Shown here one piece after another: positions 18,031 through 60,635 of a DNA stretch of 64,000 bases. Under the pieces are notes generated by a model, which searched no databases, was not told where the DNA came from, and saw nothing but the letters and a program-made list of their open reading frames with translations. Both the position numbers and the translations under genes were made by a program. The DNA is from Acidimicrobiaceae bacterium (lineage in GTDB: Bacteria > Actinomycetota > Acidimicrobiia > Acidimicrobiales > Aldehydirespiratoraceae): assembly GCA_028819005.1 (NCBI GenBank), contig JAPPMP010000026.1:96-64095 (forward strand), in the 5' to 3' direction. Each line of letters begins with the position of its first letter. Position 1 is the stretch's first letter.

Positions 18031-18035
18031 TCTCT

Positions 18036-18054
18036 GCCCGCCCGATGTGCGGGT
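18036..18054. terminator. Small GC hairpin between convergent lpdA-like and accA genes
   Basis: GCCCGC-N7-GCGGGT in the 27-bp gap between the two stop codons. No U-tract. Confidence 0.3.
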
Positions 18055-18057
18055 CGG

Positions 18058-19836
18058 TTACTCGATAACCGCGACGATGTCGCCACCGCCGACGGAGTCG
18101 CCTTCGGCGACGCGGATCTCTTTGACCGTCCCCGCTTTCTCTGCGGTGACGATGTTCTCCATCTTCATTGCTTCCAGGACGACGATGGCGTCGCCGACGT
18201 CGATGGCGTCGCCGACCGCAACGAGGACTTTGACGATCGTGCCCTGCATCGGCACGATGACATCGCCGCTGCCGGACCCGCCGCCGGAGGCGCCCCGCCC
18301 CGAACGGCGCGCCCTCGGAGCGTGTGCTGCGCTGGGAGTTCCCGCGCTTTCTGGAACCCACATTGACACCGAGAAGCGCTTGCCGTTGACCTCCACGTCG
18401 ACGTCTCGCTTGACCTTGGGCTCGTCGGCGTCTTCGGCCTCGGCGACGGCCGTCGCGCCGATACCGCTCAGATCGACGACCTCTTCGAGCCACTTGGTGC
18501 TGTGGTCGAAGGCAGCGAAGTCCGGGTGCTCGAGGACGGCGATCGCAGCGCTGGCGGTGGTCGCGACGCCTTCAATCGTGGTTTCGTCGAGGGCGCGCAG
18601 GGCCCGGGCGATCGCGGTCGGACGATCCTTGCCCCAGACGATGAGCTTCCCGATCAGGTTGTCGTAGAACTGACTGATTTCGTCGCCGGCTTGGTATCCG
18701 GTATCGAATCGGGTGCCGAACCCATCGGCGGTCCTGAGTGCGGTGATGGTTCCGGGAGAGGGCAGGAACGCACCCCCGGCCGGATCCTCGGCGTTGATTC
18801 GGATCTCGATGGCGTGCCCGGTGATTTCAATGTCGGATTGGCTGAACGGCAGTCTCTCTCCGCCGGCGACGCGGATCTGTTGTTCGACGAGGTCGACGCC
18901 GGTGACCAACTCGGTCGCCGGATGCTCGACTTGGAGACGGGTGTTCATTTCCAGATAGTGGAAGCTGCCGTCCTCATACAGGAACTCAACCGTTCCTGCG
19001 TTGACGTAATCACAGCCCTTGGCCACTTTGACGGCCGCCTCGCCCATCGCGGCGATGATCTCGGGATCGATGTTCGCCGCTGGTGCTTCTTCGATCAGCT
19101 TCTGGTGCCGGCGCTGCACCGAGCAGTCGCGGGTTCCCAGATAGACGCAGTTCCCGTGCTTGTCCGCCAGGATCTGGACTTCGACATGGCGCGGCTTGGT
19201 GAGATAGCGCTCCATGTAGCACTCGTCCCGTCCGAAGTACGAGAGGGCTTCGCGTTGGGCAGCGTCGAGTTGTTCGGCCGCCTCCTCGGCGCTGGCAACG
19301 ACTTTCATGCCGCGTCCGCCGCCGCCGTAGGCAGCTTTTACAGCGACCGGCCAACCCTGTGAGTCGCCGAACTCAATGATCTGGTCGGCGCCCGTTATCG
19401 TCTCGGTCGTACCGGGCACTCCGAAGACGCCGACGCTCTCGGCGGCCTCGCGAGCCGAGATCTTGTCGCCCATCACCTCTATCGCTTGTGGATCAGGCCC
19501 GATGAAGGCAACGCCGCGTTCGGTGATGGAACGCGCGAAATCGGCGTTCTCAGAAAAGAACCCGTAACCGGGGTGTACAGCGTCGGCGCCGCTGCGTTCG
19601 ATGACGTCGAGAATCGCGTCGGTATTGAGGTAGGACTCAGCACTGGTCTTGCCGCCGAGGCTGTAGGCCTCATCGGCTAGGCGCACGTGCAGCGCATCGC
19701 GATCAAGGTCGGAATAGACCGCGACGGTGGCGATACCGAGCTCACGGCATCCACGGATGATCCGAACCGCTATTTCGCCGCGGTTTGCTATAAGTACTTT
19801 GGAAAACACAGGATAATGGTTAGTCGAATGAGCCAT
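18058..19836 (-). CDS. accA: Acyl-CoA carboxylase alpha subunit (biotin carboxylase + BCCP)
   Basis: KVLIANRGEIAVR N-terminus, ATP-grasp core, C-terminal biotinylation motif LEAMKMEN. GTG 19809 (VFSKVLIANRG) is an alternative start. Confidence 0.9.
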   Translation of the reverse strand: MAHSTNHYPVFSKVLIANRGEIAVRIIRGCRELGIATVAVYSDLDRDALHVRLADEAYSLGGKTSAESYLNTDAILDVIERSGADAVHPGYGFFSENADFARSITERGVAFIGPDPQAIEVMGDKISAREAAESVGVFGVPGTTETITGADQIIEFGDSQGWPVAVKAAYGGGGRGMKVVASAEEAAEQLDAAQREALSYFGRDECYMERYLTKPRHVEVQILADKHGNCVYLGTRDCSVQRRHQKLIEEAPAANIDPEIIAAMGEAAVKVAKGCDYVNAGTVEFLYEDGSFHYLEMNTRLQVEHPATELVTGVDLVEQQIRVAGGERLPFSQSDIEITGHAIEIRINAEDPAGGAFLPSPGTITALRTADGFGTRFDTGYQAGDEISQFYDNLIGKLIVWGKDRPTAIARALRALDETTIEGVATTASAAIAVLEHPDFAAFDHSTKWLEEVVDLSGIGATAVAEAEDADEPKVKRDVDVEVNGKRFSVSMWVPESAGTPSAAHAPRARRSGRGASGGGSGSGDVIVPMQGTIVKVLVAVGDAIDVGDAIVVLEAMKMENIVTAEKAGTVKEIRVAEGDSVGGGDIVAVIE

Positions 19837-23906: not shown

Positions 23907-24851
23907 GTGCGCGTCGTTGTCACAGGCGGTGCGGGGTTCCTCGGTTCGCATCTGTGCGACCATCTGATCGCGCGCGGCGACGATGTCGTTTGTATAGACA
24001 ATTTCTCGACGGGAACTGTGTCGAACGTTGCGCATCTGCGCGATCACCGCAGCTTCGATCTGGTGCAACACGACGTCTCGATCCATGTGGACGTCGCCGG
24101 CGGGGTGGACGCGGTGCTGCACTTCGCAAGTCCGGCATCGCCGGTCGATTATGCGAAGATGCCGATTCAGACCCTGAAGGTGGGCTCGCTGGGCACTCAC
24201 AACACGCTTGGCCTGGCGAAGGCGAAAGGGGCGACGTACTTGTTGGCGTCGACCTCGGAGGTCTACGGCGACCCGCTGGTCCACCCGCAGGTCGAGCATT
24301 ACTGGGGCAACGTCAATCACCTGGGACCCCGAGGCGTCTATGACGAGGCAAAGCGATTCGCTGAGGCGATGACCATGGCCTATTGCCGGTATCACGGCCT
24401 GGACACGCGGATTGTGCGGATCTTCAACACGTACGGACCGCGTATGCGCCCCGACGACGGGCGGGTCGTGTCGAACTTCATTGTGGCTGCCCTTGCCGGA
24501 GAACCGCTCACGGTCTACGGCGACGGCACACAGACGCGCAGTTTCTGTTTCGTTGACGATCAGGTCCGTGGAATCGCCGCTCTGCTCGAGTCCGGCGAAC
24601 ATGATCCGGTCAATATCGGCAGCCCTTCCGAGTTCACGGTCGCGGAGTTGGCCGAGATCGTCCTGGAGGCCACCGGTTCTGATTCTCATGTCCGCTACCT
24701 CCCGCTGCCGGTCGACGACCCGAAGCGTCGTCGCCCCGACACCGCGCGTGCTGAAGAACTGCTGGGTTGGAACCCGTCCGTCGCGTTGCGCGAAGGCGTT
24801 CAGAGAACCGTCGAGTACTTCGATTCGCTAACTGCGCCGGGCCTCGGCTAG
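23907..24851 (+). CDS. uxs: UDP-glucuronate decarboxylase (UDP-xylose synthase)
   Basis: [16 protein letters not shown], catalytic YDEAKR, length 314 aa, immediately after ugd. Confidence 0.8.
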
Positions 24852-25808
24852 CTCGCGATTGGCCAGGTACCAGCCGATTGTGGCTTCCAGGCCGTCTTTG
24901 AAACCGGTTTTGGCGGTGAATCCGAAGAGCTCGCGTGCACGGCCGGCGTCAACGCCGCGTCGGGGCTGGCCGTCGGGTCTGCTGTTGTCCCAGCGGACGC
25001 AACCGTCATAGCCAGTCAATTCAACGATGCTCTCGACGAGTTCTTTGATCAACATCTCACGGTCTGCGCCGAGATTGACCGGCTCAGGTCCTTCCCAGCG
25101 TTCTGCGGCGAGGACGATACCCTCCGCGGCATCGTCCACATAGAGGAACTCGCGACTGGCGCCGCCGGTTCCCCACACCTCGATTTCTTCGGCGCCGGCC
25201 TCTTTGGCCATCACGCACTTGCGGATCAGAGCGGGAATCACATGTGAGACGTCGGGGTGGAACTTGTCACCCGGACCGTACAGATTCGTGGGCATGAGGT
25301 AGGCGCTGCGTTGCCCGTACTGATCCCGGTTGGCTTGAAGGTGGACAAGCTGGGCCAACTTGGCGATTCCGTACGGCGCATTGGTCTCTTCGGGGTATCC
25401 CATCCACAGCGAGGACTCCGAGAAGGGAACCGGCGTGTGTTTGGGATACGAGCAGATGGTTCCTATCACAAGTGTTTTGGGAACCTCGGCGAGGCGGCAT
25501 GCCTCGATCAGGTTGGTGCCCAGCATCAGGTTCTCCACGTACAACTGGGCCGGCGCGACCAGGTTGGCGCCGATACCTCCGACTCGAGCGGCGAGATGGA
25601 TCACCACGTCGGGCGCATGGTCGGCGATCGCGGCGCGGGCTTGGCCCTGGTCGAGGAAATCAACCTCGGAGCTTGTGGGGGCGACCACGTCGGACACCCC
25701 GCGCCGGGCCAGCGCGGCTCGGACCGACGTGCCGAGAAACCCGCTTCCGCCGGTGAGGAAGACGCGCTGATGCTCGAATGCCGGCTCGGCGTCGGAGTCG
25801 CGGGACAT
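24828..25808 (-). CDS. fcl: GDP-L-fucose synthase (GDP-4-keto-6-deoxymannose 3,5-epimerase/4-reductase)
   Basis: [23 protein letters not shown] (YxxxK), [11 protein letters not shown]. Start at ATG 25808. The remaining upstream 185 codons of track ORF 24828..26363 are R/P-rich and not protein-like. Confidence 0.85.
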
Positions 25809-26350
25809 AGCGTGATCGTAGCCGCCCGAAGCGGAGCGACGGCCATCGGTGATCCGTCTATGGGGCCAGCGGATTGGGTCTACAGTCGCCGGCGGTTGAT
25901 CGATCTCTACCGCAGGGAGGCAATGTGCCGAGTCTTCTTGGTCGCCGGCGGATCGCCAAGGTCGCAGGCCGGGGCGCCGGCGCTCGCTTTCTTGGCAGCC
26001 ATGCCCGGTCTCGCTTCGGCTGCCGACGGCGCTGTCGGCCTCGAGACCCTGCTCGGGATCCGGGTCTCGGCTCAAGTTGGGCGCTTGGGTCAGGACGCGG
26101 GGGGCAAGTTGCGGAACTGGGAATTGAGAGCTATCCCGAATTCGTGCTGGCACCCGGGGAAGGCCGATCCGAATGGTCCGCCGCCACAGCTCGCTCCGTG
26201 ACCGGACCTTCGGTCTCGGCATGGCTTTCTTGGTTCCAGAATGACATCGGGCGACAGACCCGTGTACGATTGGCGGCGGTTCGGCAATGAGAGCGTCGTC
26301 AGTCGCAATCCTGCCAGTCATCAGTCCGCGATACGAGGGAATGGAACCTA

Positions 26351-26689
26351 ATGGAATTATCAAGCGAAAATACGGGTGGAGCGGTAATCGTCAAGGCCGT
26401 CGGCCGCGTCGACGGCGCCAACGCTCGTGACTTCCATGAAGGCCTAGAAGCAAGTATCGGCGCTGGTGGCGAGTCGATGGTCCTTGACTTCGAGGGGTTG
26501 TCGTATATCAGCAGTGCCGGTCTGCGCGTAGTTCTGCTTGTCGCCAAAACCCTTCAACAGCAGAGCGCCAAACTCGCGGTCTGCTCACTTTCGGACTCGA
26601 TCCGGGAGGTCTTCGAGATCAGCGGATTCGACAAGATCGTTCCCGTGTACGCCGACGCCGGCGACGCCATGTCCGGTCTCGGGCTCTGA
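26351..26689 (+). CDS. STAS-domain anti-sigma-factor antagonist (SpoIIAA/RsbV-like)
   Basis: 112 aa. LDFEGLSYISSAGLRVVL contains the conserved phosphorylatable Ser context (DLSxxxxIDSxGL-like). Confidence 0.85.
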   Translation: MELSSENTGGAVIVKAVGRVDGANARDFHEGLEASIGAGGESMVLDFEGLSYISSAGLRVVLLVAKTLQQQSAKLAVCSLSDSIREVFEISGFDKIVPVYADAGDAMSGLGL

Positions 26690-26773
26690 TCCCGCCTGAG
26701 TTGACGGCTGCTTGAGCCACTCCTCGGAGCAGCGCGCGTCGAAGGTTGATCTGAAGAGTCGGAGCAGAACAGC

Positions 26774-27940
26774 ATGAGCGGCATACAACCCCCGTACAAA
26801 ATTCTCGTAGTCGACGACGAGCCGGATCTGCAGCCGCTCGTGCAGCAGCGAATGCGTCGCTATGTGCGTTCTGGGCAGTATCAGTTCACGTTCGCACAGA
26901 ACGGAGTCGAGGCGCTCGAGTGCCTGCGACAAGACGATGAGATAGTCATCGTCCTGTCTGACATCAACATGCCGAAGATGGACGGACTGGCGCTGCTCGA
27001 CCAGATCCCCAAGGTCAACCCCAATATTCGGTCTGTGATCATCTCCGCGTACGGCGACATGAAGAACATTCGCACGGCGATGAATCGGGGCGCCTTCGAT
27101 TTCGTCACCAAGCCGGTCGACTTCGACGACTTGAAACTCACCATCGATCGGACATTGCAACAGCTGTTGGAATGGCGCGACGCCCTAGGCGCGCGAGACC
27201 GGCTTGTTGCGTTGCAGAACGAGCTCAACGTCGCCTCGCAGATGCAGCAGTCGATCCTTCCGAAGAGTTTCCCGCAAGGTTCCGATTTTGAGATATATGC
27301 CAGCATGAAACCGGCGCGTTCGGTAGGGGGAGACTTCTTCGACGTCATGAGACTCGAAGGAGGAGTGCTCGGCTTGGCGGTGGCCGATGTTTCGGACAAG
27401 GGTGTGCCCGCCGCTCTGTTCATGATGTCGAGCCGGACCTTGCTGAAGGGAGCTGCGATAGGTCTTGGCAAACCGAGCGAGGTGTTGGCAGAGGTCAACA
27501 ATCTGCTTTGCGAGGACAACGAGACAGCCATGTTCGTGACACTCGTCTACGCGGTGTACGACCCGTCCAACCGGAAGTTGACCTTTGCGAACGGCGGCCA
27601 CAACCCCCCTGTTTTGATAGACCGGGACGGCAACGCCACCCGTCTGCCCTTGACCGGGGGTGTGGCTCTGGGTCTGGTGCCTGACCTTGAGTATGAGCAG
27701 ATGAGCGTGACCCTCTCGCCCGGCGATCACGTCATCTTCTACACCGACGGCGTGACCGAAGCCATGAACGAGGCTGAGGAGGAGTTCGGGATGGACCGTT
27801 TGGAGGGCCTCTTCTCGCAGTCCCGTCCATCTGAAGCACGCGTGGTCAACGATGTCATCTTTGATGCAGTCATGGATTTTGCAGGCGACGCCCCGCAGTC
27901 CGACGACATCACTTGCATGACGCTGCGAGCAGAGGGATAG
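26774..27940 (+). CDS. Response regulator (REC) fused to PP2C/SpoIIE serine phosphatase (RsbU/RsbY-like)
   Basis: REC: ILVVDDEPD...LSDINMPKMDG...FVTKP. Phosphatase: PARSVGGDFFDV...LAVADVSDKG...FYTDGVTEA. Confidence 0.9.
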   Translation: MSGIQPPYKILVVDDEPDLQPLVQQRMRRYVRSGQYQFTFAQNGVEALECLRQDDEIVIVLSDINMPKMDGLALLDQIPKVNPNIRSVIISAYGDMKNIRTAMNRGAFDFVTKPVDFDDLKLTIDRTLQQLLEWRDALGARDRLVALQNELNVASQMQQSILPKSFPQGSDFEIYASMKPARSVGGDFFDVMRLEGGVLGLAVADVSDKGVPAALFMMSSRTLLKGAAIGLGKPSEVLAEVNNLLCEDNETAMFVTLVYAVYDPSNRKLTFANGGHNPPVLIDRDGNATRLPLTGGVALGLVPDLEYEQMSVTLSPGDHVIFYTDGVTEAMNEAEEEFGMDRLEGLFSQSRPSEARVVNDVIFDAVMDFAGDAPQSDDITCMTLRAEG

Positions 27941-27956
27941 AGCCATTAGCACCGTC

Positions 27957-28361
27957 TTGTCCCTTGAGCTCGAGAACGATCCTTCGGAACTGGAGCGGAT
28001 GGCCGGCGCCGTCGAGGAATTCGCCGAGCAGCAGGACTGGTCCCCGGAGGTTGTTTTCAAGGTGAACTTGGTGCTTGAAGAGCTGGTCGTCAACGTGATG
28101 ACGCACGGGAGCCATGAGGGGCTTGCAGAGATCGAGGTGACCGTCACCTCCTCTGAAGACCTTGTCTCGATACGGCTCTCAGACAACGGCATCGCTTTCA
28201 ACCCGTTGACTGACGCCCCCGACCCCGAAGTGACGGGCTCGGTCGAAGACCGTCACGTGGGAGGGTTGGGCGTGCATCTGGTGCGCACCATGATGGACGA
28301 AGTCAGCTATCAGCGCGAGAACGGCAGGAACCTTCTGACAATGACGACCCAGAGAAATTAG
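27957..28361 (+). CDS. RsbW/SpoIIAB-type anti-sigma serine kinase (HATPase_c_2)
   Basis: N-box ELVVNVMTHG, G1 DNGIAFNP, G2 GGLGVHLV. 134 aa. TTG start. Confidence 0.8.
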   Translation: MSLELENDPSELERMAGAVEEFAEQQDWSPEVVFKVNLVLEELVVNVMTHGSHEGLAEIEVTVTSSEDLVSIRLSDNGIAFNPLTDAPDPEVTGSVEDRHVGGLGVHLVRTMMDEVSYQRENGRNLLTMTTQRN

Positions 28362-28384
28362 CCTGACAGCGCCATGGTGGTCTG

Positions 28385-29677
28385 GTGATGGAGGAGAGTT
28401 GCCGCTCATCAAGACGCATGATCGCAGTCCTGGCTGTGGCGTGGATGCTGGTCGTTGCAAGTTGTTCTTCGTCGGGAGAGAACGGCTCGAGCAACGGCAC
28501 GCCCACCACTGCGCCGTCGACGGCTGCCACATCGAGTCCCACTGACGACGCTCCGACTCAAGGTGTTCTCAGCGCGGCGCCGGGGGTCTTCGAGGACCGC
28601 GTGGTGTTCGGGCAGTCGGCTGCCTTCAGCGGCCCGGCAGAGGACCTCGGAAACGGCATGCGGCTGGGTATTGAGACTGCTTTTGAAGAGGTGAACCAAA
28701 GCGGCGGCGTCTATGGACGCCGTCTCGAACTGGTGTCCTTCGACGATGCCTACGAACCCGAAGCCGCCATCGACAACACCCAGCGGCTGATCAACAACGA
28801 CGATGTGTTCGCCCTGATCGGCGCGGTCGGGACGCCCACCTCGCGATCCGCGGTGCCTGTCGCCACCGCTGCTGAGATTCCGTACCTCGCGCCGTTCACC
28901 GGGGCCGCGTTCCTGCGCGATCCGCAGCAGAGCATCGTGTTCAATCTGCGAGCCTCCTACAACCAGGAGACCGAGGAGATGGTGGATCGCCTGGTCTCTG
29001 AATTGGGCATCGAACGGATCGCGGTGATGTACCAAGACGACTCCTTCGGCCAAGCCGGATACAACGGCGCGCGGGCGGCTCTCGACCGCCGCGGCATGGA
29101 AGCCGTGTCTGTGGGCCTGTACCCGCGTAACACGACCGCCGTGAAGACCGGACTGCTGGATCTCAAACAGGGAGATCCCCAAGGCGTGATCGTGATCGGC
29201 GCATACCAACCAGTGGCGTGGCTGATCCGCTGGGCGCGCGAGACAGGCATGAACGCGGTGTTCGTCACGATCTCGTTCGTGGGCAGCAATGCGCTGGCGC
29301 AGGAACTGGGGCCCGACGGCGCCGGCGTGTTGACGACCCAGGTTGTGCCTTTCCCGACTGATGCGGACGTCCCGGTGGTGGCCTCCTACCTCGACGCCTT
29401 GGGGGCGTACCACCCCGAAGCTGTGCCAGGATTCGTTTCTCTGGAGGGATACCTTGCGGGCCGGTTGGCCATCGCAGCTCTGGAGAGTTGCGGGCGGAGC
29501 GTCGACAGGGAGTGCTTCTCGGATCGTTTCGCCTCCTCTGAAACCATCGATATCGACGGATTCGCACTGCACTATGGGGAAGACGACAACCAGGGTTCAG
29601 ACCAGGTGTTCTGGACCGTGATCGATGAGAACGGCGAGTATCGTCCTCTCAGCAACTGGCAGGACATAGCGCCATGA
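28385..29677 (+). CDS. Periplasmic-binding-protein type I lipoprotein (LivJ/branched-chain amino acid binding-like)
   Basis: Signal peptide with lipobox LVVASC. GQSAAFSGPAEDLG and the overall pattern are typical of Peripla_BP_6 solute-binding proteins. Confidence 0.75.
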   Translation: MMEESCRSSRRMIAVLAVAWMLVVASCSSSGENGSSNGTPTTAPSTAATSSPTDDAPTQGVLSAAPGVFEDRVVFGQSAAFSGPAEDLGNGMRLGIETAFEEVNQSGGVYGRRLELVSFDDAYEPEAAIDNTQRLINNDDVFALIGAVGTPTSRSAVPVATAAEIPYLAPFTGAAFLRDPQQSIVFNLRASYNQETEEMVDRLVSELGIERIAVMYQDDSFGQAGYNGARAALDRRGMEAVSVGLYPRNTTAVKTGLLDLKQGDPQGVIVIGAYQPVAWLIRWARETGMNAVFVTISFVGSNALAQELGPDGAGVLTTQVVPFPTDADVPVVASYLDALGAYHPEAVPGFVSLEGYLAGRLAIAALESCGRSVDRECFSDRFASSETIDIDGFALHYGEDDNQGSDQVFWTVIDENGEYRPLSNWQDIAP

Positions 29678-31875
29678 GAGACTGGCTCAAGCGAATAGCC
29701 GAGAGCCGTTTTCGTGTCTCGACCCGCCTGTATTCGGTCATCGGCACGGCTGTCGTGTTGACTGTCGCAGCCAGTCTGGTCGGTTGGTTCTCCATCAATC
29801 GGGTCGGAGATGTTCAAGAGCGGGTCAACGAAGGCAGCGTGCCGGCCATGGCGGTTGCTTTCAGTGTCGCCCAGTACAGCGGTGAGCTGATCTCCGCATC
29901 GCCTCGCATCGCCGCGGCCACCCCGGAAGACCTTGATTCTGTGGCGGCGAGCATCAACGAGACTTACGCCGCGTTCGATTCGGAACTGGTGGCTCTGGAG
30001 TCGGCGGCTATGCGACCCGGCCAGAATCAACTGGTAAGGGGTCTCGGAGTCACGTTCCGCTCGAACATCGAGGAGATCAAGTTCGACCGTCTCGAGCTGT
30101 TCCAGCTCGACGACCTGAAGTCCGGCCTTCAAGCACAACTCGACGAATTGCGCGCGGAGATCGACGCCGCTCTGATCCCGGCCCTCGACGATCAGTTCTT
30201 CTTCCTGATGACCGGGTACCGGGATCTCGACGAGCCACCCAGTTCTCGTGCTGAGCACCTGTCCGAGGAAGAACTGCGGAAGTTCCGCTTCCTGTCCGAG
30301 CTTCAGGCCAACGCCAACATCTCCACCCAACTGCTCGCGAGCGCCTTCGGTTTGTCCGACGCCTCGACTATTGAGCCGTTGCGCGAACGCTTCGAGGCGT
30401 CGTCGGCCCGCATCCAGCAGAACATCTCTCAGATGAGGGAGAGCGACCCGCTCTTGGCTGATGAGTTCGATCGGCTGTTCGAAAGGCTGTTTGCGTTGGG
30501 CGGGGACCAGGGCGGGTTCGATCTGCGCGAATCCGAACTGCGTTTGCTGCAGTCCCAAGAGGAACTCCTCAATCGCAACCGTACAGTCGCCGCAGATCTC
30601 CTCGACAATGTGAACTCGCTGGTCGGAGCCGCCGAGATCAGCGTTCAGGAGGCGACCCAGGCTTCTGAGAACGCGATCTTGACCGGCCAGACCCTGCTGC
30701 TGGCGATCAGCGCGATCAGCATCGTCGGTGGTCTGTTGATGATCTATCAGGTTGGACGGGTGCTTCTGCGTCGCCTGGCGCGTCTGTCGGACTGGATGCG
30801 CGGCATGGCCAAAGGCAATTTGGAGCTCACGGCCGACGTCGGAGGACGCGACGAGATAGCGGACATGGGCGCGGCCGTCGAGGTGTTCCGCCAGCACGCT
30901 CTGGAAGTGCAGAGACTCAACTTGGTCGAACTGTTGGCAGAGGAACTGCAGGAGAAGAACGCCCAGCTCGAAGAAGTGCTGGCCGACCTGCAACGGGCGC
31001 AAGATCAGATAGTCATGCGGGAGAAGTTGGCCGCGCTCGGTGAGTTGACGGCGGGTGTGGCACACGAGATCAAGAACCCTCTGAATTTCGTCAAGAACTT
31101 CTCGGAGGCGTCGGAGGAACTGATTGAGGAGTTGAACGAGATCCTCGAGGAGATCGGCGACAGCATTTCAGCGGATCAGAAGTCATGGATCGCTGAGATC
31201 AAGGGCGACCTCGGCGACAACCTCGAGAGGATTCGCTCCCACGGAGATCGTGCCAACCGGATCGTGACCGACATGCTCTCGATGGGTCGGGACACGGGCG
31301 AATGGCAGATGGCAAACATCAACGACCTCCTTGAGGAGCATGCCCGTCTGGCCTATCACTCGGCGCGTGCCACCGACTCAGAGTTCCAGCTCGATCTGCA
31401 GCATGACCTCGACGAGTCGGTGGGGGAGATGAGGATCATTCCCCGAGATCTGAGCCGGGTGTTCTTGAACATGGTGGGCAACGCCTGTGACGCCACCGAC
31501 GAGAAGCGGCGCCAGATCTGGGGCGCTTCAGAGGAGGACGAACCCTACGGAGAGTCGTATTCTCCGACGTTGTGGGTCAGCACCCGACGCACTGAGGATC
31601 AAGTCGAGATCCGGATCAAGGACAACGGCAACGGCATCCCCCCCGACGTCGCCGACAAGATCTTCAACCCGTTCTTCACGACCAAGCCCACCGATCGGGG
31701 TACTGGGCTGGGTCTTGCCATTTCCAGCGACATTGTGCGCCAACACGGTGGAACGATCAGCGTGGACTCCGAGATCGGCGAGTACACCGAGATGCTCATC
31801 ACCCTGCCCACCGAGCTGCCAGAAGAACCAACTCCGGCTCCTTCCCAAGAAGTCGACGCGTCCGCGGCCACATAA
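29674..31875 (+). CDS. Sensor histidine kinase (TM - helical periplasmic domain - TM - HAMP - coiled coil - HisKA - HATPase_c)
   Basis: H-box LTAGVAHEIKNPLNF, N-box NMVGNACDA, G-boxes KDNGNGIP and GTGLGLAIS. ATGA overlap with the binding-protein gene. Confidence 0.9.
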   Translation: MRDWLKRIAESRFRVSTRLYSVIGTAVVLTVAASLVGWFSINRVGDVQERVNEGSVPAMAVAFSVAQYSGELISASPRIAAATPEDLDSVAASINETYAAFDSELVALESAAMRPGQNQLVRGLGVTFRSNIEEIKFDRLELFQLDDLKSGLQAQLDELRAEIDAALIPALDDQFFFLMTGYRDLDEPPSSRAEHLSEEELRKFRFLSELQANANISTQLLASAFGLSDASTIEPLRERFEASSARIQQNISQMRESDPLLADEFDRLFERLFALGGDQGGFDLRESELRLLQSQEELLNRNRTVAADLLDNVNSLVGAAEISVQEATQASENAILTGQTLLLAISAISIVGGLLMIYQVGRVLLRRLARLSDWMRGMAKGNLELTADVGGRDEIADMGAAVEVFRQHALEVQRLNLVELLAEELQEKNAQLEEVLADLQRAQDQIVMREKLAALGELTAGVAHEIKNPLNFVKNFSEASEELIEELNEILEEIGDSISADQKSWIAEIKGDLGDNLERIRSHGDRANRIVTDMLSMGRDTGEWQMANINDLLEEHARLAYHSARATDSEFQLDLQHDLDESVGEMRIIPRDLSRVFLNMVGNACDATDEKRRQIWGASEEDEPYGESYSPTLWVSTRRTEDQVEIRIKDNGNGIPPDVADKIFNPFFTTKPTDRGTGLGLAISSDIVRQHGGTISVDSEIGEYTEMLITLPTELPEEPTPAPSQEVDASAAT

Positions 31876-32976
31876 ATGGCCGATGGTCGCGTCGGCGCCA
31901 TCGTCGAGCAATGCTGGCATCGTGTTCCAGGCGGCACCGCTGTCTCGGCGGTCCTGAGCCTGGCGGCTCTGGCGCGGCACTCCGATTGGGAGGTCGTCGG
32001 AATAGCAGCCTCGCATCGCGGTCCTCCCGGCGAGTTGGCGGTTCCGCCCGTCGAGGTGTGTCACATGGGGTTGGGACGTGTGGCTCTGTACGAAGCCTGG
32101 CACCGGTTCCGCAGGCCGAGCATCCAGTCGCGTGCCGGACGTCTCGATGTAGTGCACGCGACCGGAGGCGTGATTCCGCCGTCAGGCGACGCGGCGTTGG
32201 TGGTCACACTCCATGATCTCGCGTTCCTTCACCATCCCGAGCATTTCAACCGACGAGGCGTTGCTTTCATGAGCCGTGCCTTCGAGTTGGCTAAACGGCA
32301 TGCGGATGCGGTTCTGGTGCCGTCGGAGCACACGGCGGACGATTGTGCATCCCATGGTCTCTCGGCGGACCGGCTCAGTGTTGTCCCGTGGGGCGTCACT
32401 GCGCGGGCGGTGGGCGAGCGGGACCGCTCCGAGGTGCGGTCCCGTTATCGCCTTCCCCCGCGATTCCTGTTGTGGGCCGGCACCATTGAGCCCCGCAAGA
32501 ATCTCAAGTCTCTGGTCTCAGCGGTGGCGCAGTCCCAGACGCGTCTGCCGCTGCTTCTCGTCGGCCCCGGCGGTTGGGGAGTCGACGCAGCTGGGCTGAC
32601 CGCCGGTTCCGCTGTGGAGGTGCGCCACCTCGGCTCCGTTCCGGGCGATGATCTCAGAGTGCTGTACGACTTGGCCGATGTGTTCGTCTACCCGAGTCTC
32701 ATGGAGGGTTTCGGAATGCCCGTGCTGGAGGCGATGGCCCAAGGAACGGCCGTGGTCACCAGCGGCGGCACCGCCACGGGCGAAGTTGCAGGGTCTGCGG
32801 GGGTGCTGGTCGATCCGACCAGTGTCGATTCGATCGCCGCAGGCATCGACTCGGTTGCCGGAGACGACGCGCTCCGTGAGGAGCTGGGGACCGCCGGTGC
32901 GCAGAGGGCAGGGACCATGACCTGGGAACGCACTGCCGCAGAGATCGCCGTGGTGTACAACGGGGTGCTCAAGTGA
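31876..32976 (+). CDS. Glycosyltransferase family 4
   Basis: LMEGFGMPVLEAMAQGTAVVTS. The ATG directly abuts the kinase TAA stop. Confidence 0.85.
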   Translation: MADGRVGAIVEQCWHRVPGGTAVSAVLSLAALARHSDWEVVGIAASHRGPPGELAVPPVEVCHMGLGRVALYEAWHRFRRPSIQSRAGRLDVVHATGGVIPPSGDAALVVTLHDLAFLHHPEHFNRRGVAFMSRAFELAKRHADAVLVPSEHTADDCASHGLSADRLSVVPWGVTARAVGERDRSEVRSRYRLPPRFLLWAGTIEPRKNLKSLVSAVAQSQTRLPLLLVGPGGWGVDAAGLTAGSAVEVRHLGSVPGDDLRVLYDLADVFVYPSLMEGFGMPVLEAMAQGTAVVTSGGTATGEVAGSAGVLVDPTSVDSIAAGIDSVAGDDALREELGTAGAQRAGTMTWERTAAEIAVVYNGVLK

Positions 32977-34067
32977 TCTCGGTTGCGGTCAACCTCGCCT
33001 GGCTGGTGCCCGGCGGCGTCGGCGGGAGTGAGGAGTACACGACCCGGCTGCTCGCTTCGGTCGTGCGCAGCGCCCCGGACGATCTTGCACTCGAGATTGT
33101 CGCCTCAAAGCGGTTGCAGCAGAGCTGTCCGTGGATGGCGGCGCTGCCGTTCGCCCCGCTTGCGGGTCCTTTGAGCATCCGCGGGTTCCGGATCCTGGCC
33201 GAATCGACTCAGGTTCATCGAGCTACGCGCAGCGCCGACGTCGTGCACCATTTCGGCGGGCGCCTGCCGGCTGTCCGAAACCCCCGGGCAGTCCTGACGA
33301 TTCACGATTTGCAGCCCCTGGACATGCCCGAGAACTTCAGCCGGGCGAAGCGCCGGTATCTGCGGTGGGCTGTGCAACGTTCGGCGTCCGCGGCGTCGTT
33401 GATCTGCACTCCGTCGAGATGGGTCGCGGAGTCTGTTGAAGAAACGCTCGGTGTTGGTCCAGACAAGATTCGGGTGGTGTCGTCGACTTGGGATCCAGCA
33501 CCGGCTGCACATGACGACCCAGAGATCGCTGAACTGGGCGACGGTCCCGTGGTGCTGTATCCAGCTGCCACGCATCCCCACAAGAATCACCTGACATTGC
33601 TTCAGGCTGTCGATCGCCTCGCTGATCGCCACCGCGACCTGACTCTGGTGCTCACCGGCGGTGGCGGCAGGGCTGAAGCCGGGGTTGCCTCGAGGGTCGC
33701 CAGAGCACGGGTTCGGGTGCGGCGCCTCGGCCGGGTGAGCCCCTCGATGCTGTCGGCACTGATTCGACGAGCTGATGTGCTGGCGTTTCCGTCGCGTTAT
33801 GAGGGTTTCGGCCTGCCTCTGCTCGAGGCTATGCATTCGGGCACTCCGGTTGTCGCCGGCGACAACAGCGCCATGCCCGAGGTGGTGGCGGACGCCGGGC
33901 TCCTGCTCGCCGCAGACGAACCGGCCATGTGGGCCGACGCCATCGACGAGATCGTCACAGACAGCTCATTGGCGAGTCGTCTGAGTGCTGCAGGGAGAGC
34001 GCGCGCTGAACGTTACGCCCCGGCTTCTGCGGCTGCACGACTGGTTGATGCGTGGCGGAGCCTCTGA
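32973..34067 (+). CDS. Glycosyltransferase family 4
   Basis: YEGFGLPLLEAMHSGTPVVAG. GTGA overlap with the upstream gene. Confidence 0.85.
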   Translation: MISVAVNLAWLVPGGVGGSEEYTTRLLASVVRSAPDDLALEIVASKRLQQSCPWMAALPFAPLAGPLSIRGFRILAESTQVHRATRSADVVHHFGGRLPAVRNPRAVLTIHDLQPLDMPENFSRAKRRYLRWAVQRSASAASLICTPSRWVAESVEETLGVGPDKIRVVSSTWDPAPAAHDDPEIAELGDGPVVLYPAATHPHKNHLTLLQAVDRLADRHRDLTLVLTGGGGRAEAGVASRVARARVRVRRLGRVSPSMLSALIRRADVLAFPSRYEGFGLPLLEAMHSGTPVVAGDNSAMPEVVADAGLLLAADEPAMWADAIDEIVTDSSLASRLSAAGRARAERYAPASAAARLVDAWRSL

Positions 34068-35305
34068 TGCGGATTCAGGTCGTCTGTCCCCATTTCGAAC
34101 CCGATGCAGCTCCGACCGGGGTGGTGATGAGCGAGATCGTCCGCGGGCTCGTGTCACGCGGCCACGAAGTCGACGTTGTGACGTCGCTCCCCTGGTATCC
34201 GGAGCATGCGGTGGATGAGGCTTGGAAGGGTCGGATCATTCGCAAAGAGACGACTCGGTGGGGTTCGACAACCCGCGTCTACCCCTTCCCTGCCGACAAG
34301 GGCAGTATCGCGGCGCGGGCCTTCGGTTTCGCTGGATTCACCGCATTGGCCTGCCTCTGCTCGTTGAGCAGGCGGCGACGCCCGGAAGTGGTCATGGCGA
34401 TGTCGCCTCCGTTGACGCTCGGCTTGGCCGCCTGGCTGACAGCGAGGCTGCGCCGAGCACCTTTCGTGTTCAACGTCCAGGATGTTTTCCCCGATGTCGC
34501 CGTGGCAGTCGGAGCGATTTCGAATCAACGCGTGATCCGCCTGCTCGAAGGGTTGGAGCGGTTCGTGTACCGCCGTGCCGATGCGGTAACGGTGCTTTCT
34601 GAGGATCTCCGCGTCAACGTCGAATCGAAGATCGCCGACCGAACAGCGGGCGATCGCGTCGGCGACAAGGTTCGCATCATCCCGAACTTCGTCGACGTCG
34701 AGCGAATCCGACCCCAGGAGCGTGACAATGCCTACCGGTCCGAGTTCGGCTTGGGCGCCCGAACTGTTGTCATGTACGCAGGCAATCTCGGGTTCTCCCA
34801 GCCGCTTGAACTGATGGTTGAAGCGGCGCGCTCGTTGGCGGACCGCGATGATGTGGCCTTTGTCATCAACGGCGGCGGTTCGAGGCGACAGGAGCTCGAG
34901 GTGCTCGCCCGCGGACTCGACAACCTGTTGTTTGTCGACTACCAGCCGGTGGAACGGCTCGGCGAGGTTCTTGCCGCCGGTGATGTGCATGTCATCGCTC
35001 TGCGACGTGGGCTTGGCAGGTCGTCGGTGCCCTCGAAGCTCTATTCGGTCCTGGCGGCCGGACGCGCAGTGCTGGCCTCGGTTGATTCCGGCACTGAGGT
35101 GGCGACCGTGGTTTCTTCGCAACGGGCGGGGCTGGTGGTTGCGCCTCAGGATCAGGAGGCCTTCACCGCTGCTGTGCTGGACCTGGTCGACAATGCCGAC
35201 CTAGCTGCGATGGGTTCTGCGGGGAGGCAGTTCGTGCTGCAATGGGCGTCGCCCGATGGGGTGGCCGAGGCGTACGCAGATCTCTTTGCCGAGTTGACGA
35301 GTTGA
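34067..35305 (+). CDS. Glycosyltransferase family 4, WcaI/WbuB-like
   Basis: MRIQVVCPHFEPDAAPTGVVMSEI N-terminus and NVQDVFPD are typical of the WcaI subgroup. Start at ATG 34067 (TGATG junction). Confidence 0.8.
   Translation: MRIQVVCPHFEPDAAPTGVVMSEIVRGLVSRGHEVDVVTSLPWYPEHAVDEAWKGRIIRKETTRWGSTTRVYPFPADKGSIAARAFGFAGFTALACLCSLSRRRRPEVVMAMSPPLTLGLAAWLTARLRRAPFVFNVQDVFPDVAVAVGAISNQRVIRLLEGLERFVYRRADAVTVLSEDLRVNVESKIADRTAGDRVGDKVRIIPNFVDVERIRPQERDNAYRSEFGLGARTVVMYAGNLGFSQPLELMVEAARSLADRDDVAFVINGGGSRRQELEVLARGLDNLLFVDYQPVERLGEVLAAGDVHVIALRRGLGRSSVPSKLYSVLAAGRAVLASVDSGTEVATVVSSQRAGLVVAPQDQEAFTAAVLDLVDNADLAAMGSAGRQFVLQWASPDGVAEAYADLFAELTS

Positions 35306-38852: not shown

Positions 38853-38856
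<4 letters not shown>
38155..38856 (-). CDS. cofE: Coenzyme F420-0:L-glutamate ligase, single-domain (CofE-type)
   Basis: LEIIGVEGIAEVKPGDDL...VITQKVVSKAEGR...ANAGID. Start placed at GTG 38856 (GTGA overlap with the cofD stop). Track ATG 38889 is the alternative. Confidence 0.8.
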
Positions 38857-41708
<2,852 letters not shown>

Positions 41709-41871: not shown

Positions 41872-44800
41872 GTGGCTGATCGAACCGACCAACCGCTGCC
41901 GGGTGCATCAACTGCGGCGATGGGAGCCGAGACCGACTCGGAGATTCTTGCGCCGCAAGCCAGGGACACCACACCGTCGGTCTTGGCGGTGATCGTCGCG
42001 CATGCGCCCGGCGACTGGTTCGACGAGACCCTGGAGAGTTTCGCCACACAGGACTATCAGCGTCTGGAAGTCATGGTGATCGACGCCGCCGGTGAGCCTT
42101 CCTTGGCTGCACGGGTGCAGAGTCACCTGCCCGGAGCCTCGGTCCTCGATGCGTCAGACACTGACGGGTTCTCCGCGGCCGCCAATGCGCTTATCGACAC
42201 TCATGTCGACCCCGTGTTCTTGATGATCTGCCACGATGACATCGTCTTGGAGCCGGACGCAGCCCGATTGCTCGTAGTTGAGTCTTTGCGCTCGAACGCG
42301 GGGATCGTGGGGCCGAAACTGGTGGATTGGGACAATCCCGACCGCCTGCAGCATGTCGCGTACATCGTCGACCGCCTAGCGGTGGCTGCCGACGTCGTAG
42401 ACCCCGGCGAGATCGACCAGGAGCAGTACGACGCCGTCGTCGATGTCTTCGCGGTTCCCTCGGCCTGCATTCTCATCCGCACCGACCTGTTCCGGGACCT
42501 CGACGGGTTTGATCCGGGAATGCCCTATCACTGCGAAGACGTTGATCTCTGCTTCAGGGCGCAGCTTGCAGGGGCGCGGGTGATGGCGGTTCCCGACGCG
42601 AGGGTGCGGCATCGACAGGCGCTCTCGACGCGCACCGGGGTCGACGACGGCGATCTGCAGCGCGCCCGCCACCAACTGCGCACTGTGGCGGTCACGTCGA
42701 GCTGGCCGTCTCTGTGCTACCTGCTGCCGCTCGCGTTCCTGTTCTCGCTCGGAGAGTCGATGGCCGCCCTGTTCGCTAGGCGGTTCGGGCATTTCCGCGA
42801 TGTCTGGGGGGCTTGGCTCTGGAATTTGGCTCGTTTGGGGGAGATTCACAGCCGGCGCCAGGCGTTGCGGCATATCAGGAGAACCCGGCACAAAGACGTC
42901 CGGGCCCTCCAACAGAGTGGGAGCGTGCGGCTCACGGCACTGTTGAGGGGACGAATCGGTTCCGACAGCGCGCATGCGGTGGGGCGGGAACTGGCATCGG
43001 CCATGCGCACGGGCACAGCCCGGATCTCTGCTGTTGTCTGCGGCTTGGTGGGGTTGTTCGCGCTGTTCGGTTCGCGGTCGTTGATCGCCGACGGGATTCC
43101 TGCGATCGGGGATTACCTCTCGTTCGGCGGGTCGGGCTGGGACATGATCGGTGATTGGTGGAGCGGTTGGCGCGAGCGCGACATGGGCAGCACCGGCGCT
43201 GCCGCGCCTTCGGCGGGTCTGCTGGGCTTGTTGTCGATCCTGCTGGGCAGTTCCACGGGTCTGGCGCGCACGTTGTGGGTGTTGTTGCCGTTGGCGGCGG
43301 GTCTGGTGGGAGCTTGGCGGATGCTTCGACCGACTGGCTCGCGGCGAGCCCAGCTCGGCTGTCTGCTCGCCTACGCGGTGATTCCGCTGCCCTGGGCCGC
43401 GGTTGCCAATGCCAGCATCGGTGGGATTTATGCGTATGCGCTCTCGCCGTGGCTGCTCGGGGCGATGCTGAGCGCGCAGTCGGCATGGTCGGCCAACAGG
43501 GCCGATGATTCCCAACAATCGGTGGGCCGCATTGGTTGGACAATGGGCGCGGCTGTCGGTGTGACTGCGCTTTTCGATCTGTCTGCGGCCCTTATATCCG
43601 TTCCGATGATCGCCGGGTTGTTCCTCGCCGCGGTTCTGACGGTCGACTTCAGAGGGGTTCTGCGCCTTTTTGCATGTGTGATTCTGGCGGCGCCGGTTGT
43701 CGCTGTCCTGGTCCTGCCGTTTCTGGTGGACCTGCTCGTCGCAGGTCCGAGTTGGGCTCCCCTCGCTGGCGGGCGTGACGGTTCAGCCTCTGCGATCTCG
43801 CTGGTAGACATTCTCAGCTTTGATATCGGCCCGAGAGAACCGGGCGCCTTTATCTGGGCTTTCGGATTGTTGATGGCCATTCCGGTGGTCATCGGGCGTT
43901 CGTGGCGGTTCGGCCTGGCGGTTCGCGGCTGGTCCGTTGCGATTGCGAGCTGGGGTTTGACCTGGGCTGCGGCTCTGGGTTGGCTGCCTTTCGGCGTGCC
44001 CGACAACAGCGTTCTGCTGGCGACCGCCGCTGCGGGTGTGGCGCTGGCCTGCGGGGCGGCGATCGTGGCGTTCGAACATGATCTGTCGACTGCGGGGTTC
44101 GGCTGGCGTCAGGCATTGTTGCCGGTGGCAGTGCTCGCGGCTGTGGCCGGTTCCATTCCCGGGCTTGCTCTTGCAGAGACCGGACGCTGGGAGATGCCTC
44201 GCGGCGACTATGAGGACGTTCTGCCCTTCGCCGACCCGCTGAGGCACGGAAGTTATCGCGTGTTGTGGATAGGGGTTCCTGAGGCGATCCCGGGCGACGG
44301 TCGTTCATTGGTGGCTGATCTTGTGTGGGTCGCGTCGATCGACGGGCCTCCGAGCCTCTCGGACCGCATTCCCGCGGTCGACGCCGGTTCAGCGCCGCTG
44401 GTGAACGAGGCGCTGTCGCGAGCGATCAACGGCGACACGATCCGGCTCGGCAGAGAGCTCGGCGGTCTCGGCATCAGGTACGTGGTTCTGCTGGACAGGC
44501 TTGCGCCGGCCCCCTTCAGCGATGCCGACGACACGGTTGGGATCCCTGCCGGGTTCCGAGCCTCCATTGCCTCTCAGCTGGACTTGCAACGCCTTGAGGG
44601 GATCAACAGCGCCGTGGAGGTGTACGCCAACACGGACTGGACCTCGGTTCGCGCTGCGGCGACTCCGGGCTTCGACAGCGAAGTCAGCGGGATCTCCGAC
44701 TTGGCGGCCATGCCGATATCCGGAACCGCTGGCGTGATGCCAGGACGCGGCGACAAGGTCTCCGGTTCGATCCCTGACGGCACGGAAGTGTTTGTGGCCC

Positions 44801-45024
44801 AGACCAGCGACGCCTCCTGGAGGTTCGAGGTTGATGGTTCTCGCGGGGCACAGCGGCGTTCGGTCGGATATGCGACCGCTTTCGCTCCCCAGGCGGGTGG
44901 CGCCGGCGAATTGGCCTACTTAACCGCGCCGTGGCGACGATGGGTCTTGATCGTGCAGGTGTCCGCGATCCTGTTTTTGATCGGTGTGATCGCAATTCGC
45001 CCAGTGATCGGGCATCGACGGTGA
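41872..45024 (+). CDS. Large GT2 glycosyltransferase fused to a polytopic membrane domain and extracytoplasmic C-terminal region
   Basis: N-terminal GT-A (VLAVIVAHAP...MVIDAAG...MICHDDIVLE...CEDVDLCFR), then >10 hydrophobic segments, a soluble region and a terminal TM. GTG start; ATG at codon 17 is an alternative. Confidence 0.75.
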   Translation: MADRTDQPLPGASTAAMGAETDSEILAPQARDTTPSVLAVIVAHAPGDWFDETLESFATQDYQRLEVMVIDAAGEPSLAARVQSHLPGASVLDASDTDGFSAAANALIDTHVDPVFLMICHDDIVLEPDAARLLVVESLRSNAGIVGPKLVDWDNPDRLQHVAYIVDRLAVAADVVDPGEIDQEQYDAVVDVFAVPSACILIRTDLFRDLDGFDPGMPYHCEDVDLCFRAQLAGARVMAVPDARVRHRQALSTRTGVDDGDLQRARHQLRTVAVTSSWPSLCYLLPLAFLFSLGESMAALFARRFGHFRDVWGAWLWNLARLGEIHSRRQALRHIRRTRHKDVRALQQSGSVRLTALLRGRIGSDSAHAVGRELASAMRTGTARISAVVCGLVGLFALFGSRSLIADGIPAIGDYLSFGGSGWDMIGDWWSGWRERDMGSTGAAAPSAGLLGLLSILLGSSTGLARTLWVLLPLAAGLVGAWRMLRPTGSRRAQLGCLLAYAVIPLPWAAVANASIGGIYAYALSPWLLGAMLSAQSAWSANRADDSQQSVGRIGWTMGAAVGVTALFDLSAALISVPMIAGLFLAAVLTVDFRGVLRLFACVILAAPVVAVLVLPFLVDLLVAGPSWAPLAGGRDGSASAISLVDILSFDIGPREPGAFIWAFGLLMAIPVVIGRSWRFGLAVRGWSVAIASWGLTWAAALGWLPFGVPDNSVLLATAAAGVALACGAAIVAFEHDLSTAGFGWRQALLPVAVLAAVAGSIPGLALAETGRWEMPRGDYEDVLPFADPLRHGSYRVLWIGVPEAIPGDGRSLVADLVWVASIDGPPSLSDRIPAVDAGSAPLVNEALSRAINGDTIRLGRELGGLGIRYVVLLDRLAPAPFSDADDTVGIPAGFRASIASQLDLQRLEGINSAVEVYANTDWTSVRAAATPGFDSEVSGISDLAAMPISGTAGVMPGRGDKVSGSIPDGTEVFVAQTSDASWRFEVDGSRGAQRRSVGYATAFAPQAGGAGELAYLTAPWRRWVLIVQVSAILFLIGVIAIRPVIGHRR

Positions 45025-58233: not shown

Positions 58234-58256
58234 ATTTTCGGCCCATAGGATGGGGC

Positions 58257-58311
58257 GCGGGCACAGCAGGGATGGTGCCAGTCGACCCGTGCCCGCTCGT
58301 TTCCGTCTTTT
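58257..58311 (+). terminator. Candidate intrinsic terminator after manA
   Basis: GCGGGCAC (58257..58264) pairs with GTGCCCGC (58289..58296), and inner GGG/CCC pairing is possible. It is followed by the T-rich TCGTTTCCGTCTTTT. The loop is long, so confidence is modest. Confidence 0.35.
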
Positions 58312-58341
58312 AGGCACGTCGTTGTATAGGAGTGTTGTTCG

Positions 58342-59784: not shown

Positions 59785-59830
59785 TTGTCAGTTCTTGTCA
59801 GTCCACTTTGGGATCTTCGTTGATCTTGAT

Positions 59831-60605: not shown

Positions 60606-60635
60606 GGCGTTGGGTTGCCTATTGGTGTCTGAATA

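Follow-up and report, generated by a model that had tools for sequence, protein, structure and literature searches.

A partner-switching cassette with a LivJ-type lipoprotein and a TorS-like kinase, probably nitrogen-linked, is joined to a cell-wall glycan cluster in one clade of Acidimicrobiia

Does a partner-switching module govern the genes that are packed behind it without a gap? The question is posed by a 64,000-nt stretch of DNA (hereafter the window) from an Acidimicrobiaceae metagenome-assembled genome (MAG; GCA_028819005.1, contig JAPPMP010000026.1, positions 96-64,095), in which five signalling genes run into three genes for GT4 glycosyltransferases. Calling of open reading frames (ORFs) placed eight of them, all on the plus strand at 26351-35305, exactly where an initial annotation had put them, and bore out the tight packing it described: the ORF coordinates leave 84, 16 and 23 nt between the first four genes, and an ATGA overlap (29674-29677), a TAA-ATG abutment (31873-31878), a GTGA overlap (32973-32976) and a TGATG junction (34065-34069) can be read in the sequence. 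A Pfam scan of 58 window ORFs, the hidden Markov model assignment which that annotation had proposed, confirmed all of its domain calls and its gene order, and the term lipoprotein agrees with a lipobox at Cys27:

26351-26689, plus strand: single-domain STAS protein of the anti-sigma-antagonist type, 112 aa (Pfam STAS)
26774-27940, plus strand: REC-PP2C/SpoIIE serine phosphatase, 388 aa (Response_reg and SpoIIE/PP2C)
27957-28361, plus strand: RsbW/SpoIIAB-like GHKL serine kinase, 134 aa, TTG start (HATPase_c_2)
28385-29677, plus strand: solute-binding lipoprotein of the LivJ/HAAT family (Peripla_BP_6); likely true start ATG 28388
29674-31875, plus strand: membrane histidine kinase (HK), 733 aa (HAMP, HisKA and HATPase_c)
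31876-32976, plus strand: GT4 glycosyltransferase a (Glycos_transf_1 and Glyco_transf_4)
32973-34067, plus strand: GT4 glycosyltransferase b (Glycos_transf_1 and Glyco_transf_4)
34052-35305, plus strand: GT4 glycosyltransferase c, WcaI-like (Glycos_transf_1 and Glyco_transf_4); likely start ATG 34067

The REC-PP2C protein is 100% identical to NCBI MDE0066883.1 and the HK to MDE0066886.1.

Comparison with related loci revealed that the five signalling genes are an autonomous cassette, that the GT4 genes are a separate unit, and that the clade of the window joins them. On balance we favour, with reasonable though not firm confidence, a history in which an autonomous, horizontally spread and probably nitrogen-linked cassette, accompanied by the ammonium transporter gene amtB, was inserted into a wall-glycan cluster that already existed; read-through into the GT4 genes would be a likely by-product. 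The five-gene set of STAS protein, REC-PP2C, RsbW-like kinase, LivJ-type lipoprotein and HAMP HK was found at 47 loci, some of them redundant, from five phyla: Actinomycetota, Chloroflexota, Pseudomonadota (alpha and gamma), Binatota and Thermodesulfobacteriota. Annotated hosts are Dehalococcoidia, Alphaproteobacteria, Gammaproteobacteria (Ca. Azotimanducaceae), Ca. Binatia, Thermodesulfobacteriota and Ca. Poriferisodalis (Acidimicrobiia). Most of the 47 loci keep the core order REC-PP2C, small kinase, binding protein, HK; in L021, L024, L110 and L112 the kinase lies upstream of REC-PP2C. At homologous loci the STAS gene stands either upstream or just downstream on the opposite strand.

REC-PP2C homologs in the same gene order show 51-78% identity, and copies in other phyla 51-69%. 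When loci L005-L019 were compared with the window, REC-PP2C was 57-67% identical between five phyla, whereas the STAS protein and the small kinase were less so (37-61%). This difference suggests horizontal transfer combined with strong constraint on REC-PP2C. An independent scan anchored on the sensor domain of the HK yielded 25 further loci, 19 of which carry the full five-gene set. The sensor-domain family is small: among 1.84 billion cluster representatives it has 338 matches at E <= 1e-3, 162 at E <= 1e-10 and 41 at E <= 1e-30. We found no description of the cassette in open-access papers, whether by itself or next to amtB.

Seventeen of the 25 metagenome matches to the HK sensor came from three Mediterranean marine-sponge metagenomes (MKWU01, LXNI01 and LXNJ01; L092-L116; PMC5099237, PMC5649159), and MKWU01, which is linked to Aplysina aerophoba, holds the family on at least nine different contigs. 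Several genome matches (L009, L017, L018, L020) either carry isolate names that resemble those of sponge bins or are assigned to Ca. Poriferisodalis. A concentration of the cassette in sponge symbionts is possible, the composition of the databases being uncontrolled.

The GT4 genes behave differently from the cassette. They flank it at 7 of the 47 loci, all within the window's own clade (HK at least 73% identical), and at none of the 40 loci outside, so that the initial annotation's view of glycan assembly as the cargo of the module does not hold. The three GT4 proteins themselves carry neither a STAS domain nor any additional domain in Pfam and NCBIfam, GT4c falling just under the cut-off of the WcaI family NF007640 (246 bits; cut-off 276). 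The window as a whole is dominated by envelope glycan genes: several GT2 and GT4 enzymes, YfhO-like and PMT-like proteins, an LCP ligase, UDP-glucose dehydrogenase, several epimerases, NDP-sugar pyrophosphorylase, GDP-mannose dehydratase, phosphomannomutase and phosphomannose isomerase, with CofD/CofE, AccA, BirA and FtsH interspersed.

The glycan cluster also occurs where the cassette is absent. In L091, an Acidimicrobiales MAG whose GT4a is 58% identical to that of the window, only 65 bp separate a divergent epimerase from GT4a, and no trace of amtB or of the cassette is present. The syntenic order there is Pyr_redox, AccA, BirA, LCP, UDP-glucose dehydrogenase, epimerase, minus-strand epimerase, GT4a, b and c, followed by a hypothetical membrane protein, NTP-transferase, epimerase, CofE, CofD, GDP-mannose dehydratase, epimerase and a giant GT2 protein. 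By contrast L090, which by its flanking genes is about as distant from the window as L091 and whose GT4a is 60% identical, has the minus-strand epimerase, amtB and the cassette before GT4a, b and c. GT4b is syntenic in L085, L086, L089, L090 and L091, and GT4c in L091. Since the cluster is complete in L091 without the cassette, the glycan cluster is autonomous as well. We suppose that an ancestor of the clade received amtB and the cassette at this point, with the divergent epimerase on one side and GT4a on the other. The upstream border of the site and what the window contains next to it are as follows:

24828-25850, minus strand: divergent NAD-dependent sugar epimerase, upstream edge of the insertion site (Pfam; relatives)
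about 25902-26161, plus strand: amtB pseudogene, an ammonium transporter remnant (tblastn with the Amt of L085; blastn collinearity)
26241-26270, plus strand: promoter-like site, ATGACA, 18 nt, TACGAT (consensus scan and alignment; a consensus match only)

As called, the epimerase ORF (24828-26363, minus strand) is over-extended: it encodes 511 aa as compared to 319-355 aa in relatives, and its Pfam domains begin at residue 200. At this edge blastn collinearity stops near 25822.

An intact Amt gene (424-459 aa) lies directly upstream of the STAS gene in L085, L086, L087, L090 and L092; in the first three of these REC-PP2C is 94%, 89% and 83% identical to that of the window. Of the 457 aa of Amt, the remnant in the window has kept only the stretches from about residue 3 to 42 and 420 to 456. 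The window and L085 are collinear up to 26049 and again from 26215, positions 8190-9441 of L085 being replaced by window 26049-26215 with a loss of about 1.25 kb; after the presumed insertion the window lost most of its amtB. L089 keeps only Amt residues 399-457, with breakpoints unlike those of the window, although its low-coverage contig calls for caution. The different breakpoints imply two or more separate losses of amtB.

L089 is a contig of about 2.5x coverage in which GT4b and the epimerase genes are split into fragments, and transposases of the insertion sequence type (rve) interrupt its glycan cluster (16810-19204).

What did the insertion do to the GT4 genes? A block of about 135 nt upstream of the STAS gene, which contains the promoter-like site, is conserved in the window, L085, L086, L087 and L089. 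Across 26351-35305 a scan with an E. coli-type consensus, which is weak for Actinomycetota, found no plus-strand promoter-like and no convincing terminator-like site; promoter-like sites numbered 2 against 1.4 expected and terminator-like sites 11 against 8.1 expected, with none at 31875/31876. Because the insertion left no intergenic space between the HK and GT4a, read-through from the cassette probably accounts for at least part of the transcription of the GT4 genes. A reading confined to such transcriptional capture, in which the cassette sends no signal to the glycosyltransferases but the GT4 genes were cut from their original upstream region and are now the tail of an amtB/cassette operon, so that wall-glycan synthesis would depend on the control of that operon's promoter, is compatible with the history favoured above, and we give it somewhat less than an even chance. 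The gapless junction devoid of promoter- or terminator-like sites, the conserved block upstream of the STAS gene and the start of GT4a 65 bp from the divergent epimerase in L091 all speak for it. However, the consensus used is ill suited to this phylum, an internal promoter may lie in the HK coding region, and the 65-bp intergenic sequence of the empty site in L091 aligns above noise to neither edge of the insertion.

The genes that do recur beside the cassette belong to nitrogen metabolism. Nitrogen genes (Amt, P-II, GlnE or GS/GOGAT-like) flank 21 of the 47 cassette loci and none of 61 controls, and an intact Amt gene stands at 10 of 27 cassette loci as compared to 0 of 62 controls from the same scan (Fisher p = 1.7e-6), neither figure being corrected for shared ancestry. 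Inclusion of a CP_ATPgrasp cluster, present at 10 of the 47, brings the number of flanked loci to 26. These counts combine homology-based detection with precomputed Pfam tables, and greedy picking of the longest ORF in high-GC loci gave some ORFs on the wrong strand. Outside the window clade, Amt, sometimes with P-II, lies by the cassette in L003-L006, L010, L013, L097, L106 and L110; GlnE does so in L015, L017 and L109, two Rhodobacterales loci being among the cases; and a GS-like/GATase/GXGXG/Glu_synthase/DAO set is found near it in L001, L088 and L096. The Amt of L003-L006 is 68-71% identical to the Amt of Acidimicrobiia, which means that cassettes in different phyla are found with closely related transporters. 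When 134 ORFs flanking the cassette at 17 loci were scanned with Pfam, Ammonium_transp ranked first and no Sigma70 or glycosyltransferase family recurred. Since the recurrent neighbours are Amt, P-II, GlnE, GS/GOGAT-like genes and the CP_ATPgrasp/Alpha-E cluster, the physiological role of the cassette probably concerns nitrogen supply. Signal-gated glycan synthesis, as the initial annotation envisaged it, finds no support among neighbours that are nitrogen genes and neither glycosyltransferases nor sigma factors.

The CP_ATPgrasp/Alpha-E/transglutaminase cluster that adjoins the cassette in 10 loci (among them L003 8164-13074, L004 15963-20971, L005, L006, L097, L103, L113 and L114) often contains an Amt gene, and an Amt embedded in a cluster of this kind is unusual. 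Near the cassette of L088 a DarT/Macro-domain (DarG-like) pair lies at 17141-18732.

Both components of the predicted sensor are of recognisable types. The binding protein matches Peripla_BP_6 with 198 bits (E = 3.6e-58), its lipobox VVAS|C27 is followed by a Ser/Thr/Pro linker, and its closest PDB relative is 4kv7 (E = 9e-71). Pfam scans of the window and of relatives' loci found no ABC permease or ATPase near its gene, which overlaps the start of the HK gene (ATGA) and neighbours an HK gene in every cassette locus checked. Among 21 orthologs from different phyla, 8 of 11 positions equivalent to the LivJ pocket are invariant, and only conservative changes occur at the remaining three; this pattern suggests that the orthologs share a single ligand, presumably a non-canonical one. 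In LivJ the residues S79, T102, Y202 and E226 hold the alpha-carboxylate and alpha-ammonium of the bound amino acid. Aligned by MAFFT to LivJ and LivK of E. coli, at about 20% identity and therefore with possible register errors, the binding protein has T, G, A and S in their place, and the Ala at position 202 is directly followed by a Tyr; the equivalent of Glu226 is an invariant Ser in the 21 orthologs, and as far as an alignment of such low identity can tell, the pocket differs from those of both LivJ and LivK.

The HK has a transmembrane segment at residues 18-41, a helical outside domain of about 295 aa, a second transmembrane segment at about 340-361, then HAMP, HisKA (H474 in the H box) and HATPase_c; Pfam finds neither a receiver nor an Hpt domain in it, and its N-terminus gives weak matches to the four-helix bundles TarH/4HB. 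The TorS model TIGR02956 covers residues 27-451 with its positions 14-442 (E = 2.3e-41), at 141.9 bits as compared to an equivalog cut-off of 676.5. A search of the PDB by sequence returned nothing meaningful for the sensor region. An AlphaFold model of residues 1-420 (pLDDT 78.7; above 90 over most of 70-310) had as its top five Foldseek matches in the PDB the sensor domains of TorS, including the TorS-TorT complexes 3O1H, 3O1I and 3O1J (target-normalised TM-score 0.61-0.67, E = 8e-5 to 4e-4); the next matches were double four-helix-bundle domains of chemoreceptors. The most economical reading is a TorT-TorS-like pair with a LivJ-type protein in place of TorT.

Downstream of this sensor, the partner-switch proteins have the residues that their functions require. 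The STAS protein (Pfam STAS, E = 1.5e-19, 70.2 bits) passes the threshold of the anti-sigma-antagonist superfamily TIGR00377 (78.7 bits; cut-off 53.45) and conserves the phosphorylatable serine (S54/S55 in YISSAGL). In REC-PP2C the receiver residues D14, D15, D63, S91 and K113, the phosphatase motifs GGDF, DVSDKG, TDG and SDD, and the metal-binding aspartates D187, D205, D208, D325, D377 and D378 show no variation among 16 homologs (SpoIIE match 174.5 bits). The small kinase (HATPase_c_2, 93.8 bits, E = 1.1e-26) has its N box (ELVVNVMTHG), G1 box (DNGIAF) and G2 box (GGLGVHL); its best named NCBIfam matches are RsbW and SpoIIAB, yet it scores far below every RsbW/SpoIIAB equivalog cut-off. None of the five cassette proteins falls into a named NCBIfam equivalog. 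In L019 and P0020 REC-PP2C and the small kinase are naturally fused in one protein with the domain order of HsbR/CrsR, which is independent evidence that both act on the same substrate.

The signalling logic which the initial annotation had put forward, from binding protein and HK through REC-PP2C to STAS/RsbW, fits these intact catalytic and phospho-acceptor motifs. In such a pathway the orphan LivJ-family lipoprotein would capture a solute from outside and dock on the TorS-like helical domain of the HK, as TorT does on TorS. The HK would phosphorylate D63 of REC-PP2C and thereby set its phosphatase activity; phosphatase and RsbW-like kinase would have opposite effects on Ser54/55 in the STAS protein; and the phosphorylation state of the latter would decide whether it or another partner occupies the kinase, which is the partner switch proper.

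Which partner might that be? Pfam gave no Sigma70 match and no Hpt domain in the 58 window ORFs scanned. Jackhmmer with unverified RpoE and SigB probes and a verified E. coli RpoH found no sigma factor among all six-frame ORFs of >=60 aa in the window, at a sensitivity limited to only three ECF-like ORFs in 2.0 Mb. Within that limit the initial annotation was right that the 64 kb hold no sigma-70-type ORF. It had also proposed a survey of orthologous modules for an accompanying sigma factor or GT4 trio: the same probes and precomputed Pfam tables detected no sigma-like ORF at any of the 47 cassette loci, and the GT4 trio did not recur outside the clade. Beyond the genes of the cassette itself, nothing conserved adjoins it across loci. 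With no conserved extra neighbour and no sigma gene near any copy, the output partner would be encoded elsewhere, outside the neighbourhood of the cassette in every genome examined. For a cassette that moves between phyla, a widely conserved protein, or a co-transferred one such as Amt, seems a more likely target than a lineage-specific sigma factor.

A switch of the general stress type, in which the kinase is the anti-sigma factor of a distant sigma factor, as in HsbR/CrsR-RpoS, and the nitrogen genes are hitch-hikers, has two points in its favour: the STAS protein passes the anti-sigma-antagonist cut-off with RsbW and SpoIIAB as the best named matches of the kinase, and the REC-PP2C-kinase fusions follow the domain order of HsbR/CrsR (PMC6482189). 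We consider it unlikely, since movement between five phyla at 51-69% REC-PP2C identity is hard to square with a lineage-specific sigma factor, the kinase stays far under every RsbW/SpoIIAB equivalog cut-off, nitrogen genes are enriched as described above, and a related Amt occurs with the cassette in both Dehalococcoidia and Acidimicrobiia. A bolder version of the nitrogen hypothesis is doubtful to a similar degree. In this version the cassette, spread horizontally and concentrated in sponge symbionts, would sense nitrogen compounds outside the cell, and its STAS protein and kinase would act post-translationally on AmtB, on GlnE/GS or on CP_ATPgrasp/Alpha-E and not on a sigma factor; in the window's clade the GT4 genes would additionally have come under its transcription, tying the envelope glycan to nitrogen status.

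Several points weigh against a nitrogen-linked cassette inserted into the glycan cluster. Firstly, all the compared sequences are MAGs of uncultured organisms and metagenomes, and shared ancestry is left in the neighbour statistics, both the Fisher p and the comparison of cassette loci with controls. Secondly, only about 55% of the cassette loci have nitrogen or CP_ATPgrasp neighbours, and the repeated loss of amtB with retention of the cassette means that the cassette does not depend on an adjacent amtB. Thirdly, the pocket of the binding protein has no equivalent of LivJ Glu226, and its comparison names no ligand. Fourthly, an ancestral cassette that was precisely lost in L091 is an alternative to insertion. 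Finally, the HK/GT4a junction of 0-12 nt is kept clade-wide, down to 60% GT4a identity, which is compatible with selection for co-expression, and STAS-based control of polysaccharide has real precedents (PMC13555669, PMC4517449). The initial annotation's model, in which the cassette gates envelope-glycan synthesis and the STAS state controls the GT4 enzymes by contact or through a distant sigma factor, draws on those precedents, Anabaena HenR/Alr3423/All4160 and Vibrio SypE-SypA, and on zero-gap same-strand packing kept in seven related genomes, but is improbable given GT4 proteins with no STAS or extra domain, a complete and syntenic glycan cluster without the cassette in L091, cassettes outside the clade that all do without GT4 neighbours, and a cassette that appears to have come with amtB and not with glycosyltransferases.

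Elsewhere in the window, two very large GT2-domain proteins are encoded at 41872-45024 (1050 aa; syntenic in L090 and L091) and 50291-54274 (1327 aa), most of their length being without a Pfam match. The CofD ORF (38853-40091, minus strand) is over-extended at 412 aa as compared to about 308-310 aa, and in this long form overlaps the GDP-mannose dehydratase gene. Near the left end, 622-3102 encodes a Fic/DOC-domain protein (467 aa) and an HTH_3 regulator in a stretch of lower GC (0.59-0.61), which may be a mobile or toxin-related islet. GC is also lower at 58000-62200 (0.58-0.60), where several ORFs have no Pfam match and a GerE/LuxR-type regulator lies at 61444-62163. An Rfam scan of the whole window returned nothing at gathering thresholds.

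Partner switches have usually been studied as controls of sigma factors in a few model bacteria. The compact five-gene switch described here is common to five phyla and has an unusual front end, a LivJ-type lipoprotein with a TorS-like kinase; many copies come from the microbiomes of marine sponges, in which nitrogen exchange with the host is central. If its output were a protein of nitrogen uptake or assimilation, the cassette would represent a new post-translational branch of nitrogen control and would also clearly exemplify the transfer of a signalling module among symbionts that live together. Annotation can draw a further lesson: tight same-strand packing can come from insertion and is by itself no proof of a shared pathway.

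Among known systems, RsbK-RsbY-RsbV-RsbW-SigB of B. cereus has the same three-tier logic, in which an HK acts on a stand-alone REC-PP2C and this in turn on STAS/RsbW. RsbK is a cytoplasm-facing hybrid kinase with a receiver of its own (PMC3999984), whereas the HK of the window is non-hybrid and has a TorS-like outside domain and a dedicated binding lipoprotein; in addition, the B. cereus cluster contains sigB, and no cassette locus among the 47 has a sigma gene nearby. R. capsulatus RbaV/W/Y was considered as the same system and rejected: it has a REC-PP2C, but the gene layout is another one and there is no pair of binding protein and kinase (PMC3999984).

RpoS and FlgM, the targets of HsbR-HsbA and CrsR-CrsA, are encoded elsewhere in the genome. 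In Pseudomonas HptB-HsbR-HsbA and Shewanella CrsR-CrsA, as in the cassette, REC, PP2C and kinase/anti-sigma modules converge on one STAS protein; these systems act on RpoS and FlgM, their outputs RpoS, FlgM and HsbD are not part of the HsbR/CrsR module, and their domain order is the one that recurs in the cassette fusions of L019 and P0020 (PMC6482189). In the window, however, the proteins are split (16-nt gap), an Hpt relay is lacking, sequence similarity is low, the best named NCBIfam match being Pseudomonas RssB with 118 bits against a cut-off of 700, and the predicted input is a binding-protein-dependent kinase from the same operon.

Two further systems, neither with a known sigma factor, control polysaccharide through a STAS phosphorylation state that a REC-containing PP2C protein and an RsbW-like kinase set between them (PMC4517449, PMC10120452, PMC13555669). 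SypE-SypA of Vibrio fischeri lies within the syp polysaccharide locus and has no known sigma target (PMC4517449), and Anabaena HenR and the kinase Alr3423 directly regulate All4160, a glycosyltransferase fused to a STAS domain (PMC13555669). In both the tie to glycan is genetic and functional, whereas the STAS protein of the window is free-standing and its adjacency to GT4 genes is confined to one clade. Together with HsbR/CrsR, these examples show that it is too narrow to regard known systems as ending in a sigma factor encoded next to them.

The input side most resembles TorT-TorS, which senses trimethylamine N-oxide in E. coli and Vibrio and likewise sets a binding protein beside a kinase with a long, stacked helical outside domain. 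The cassette differs in that its binding protein belongs to the LivJ/HAAT family and its HK dispenses with the receiver and Hpt domains of TorS; and the predicted cognate receiver of this HK is fused to a PP2C phosphatase, in place of the DNA-binding TorR.

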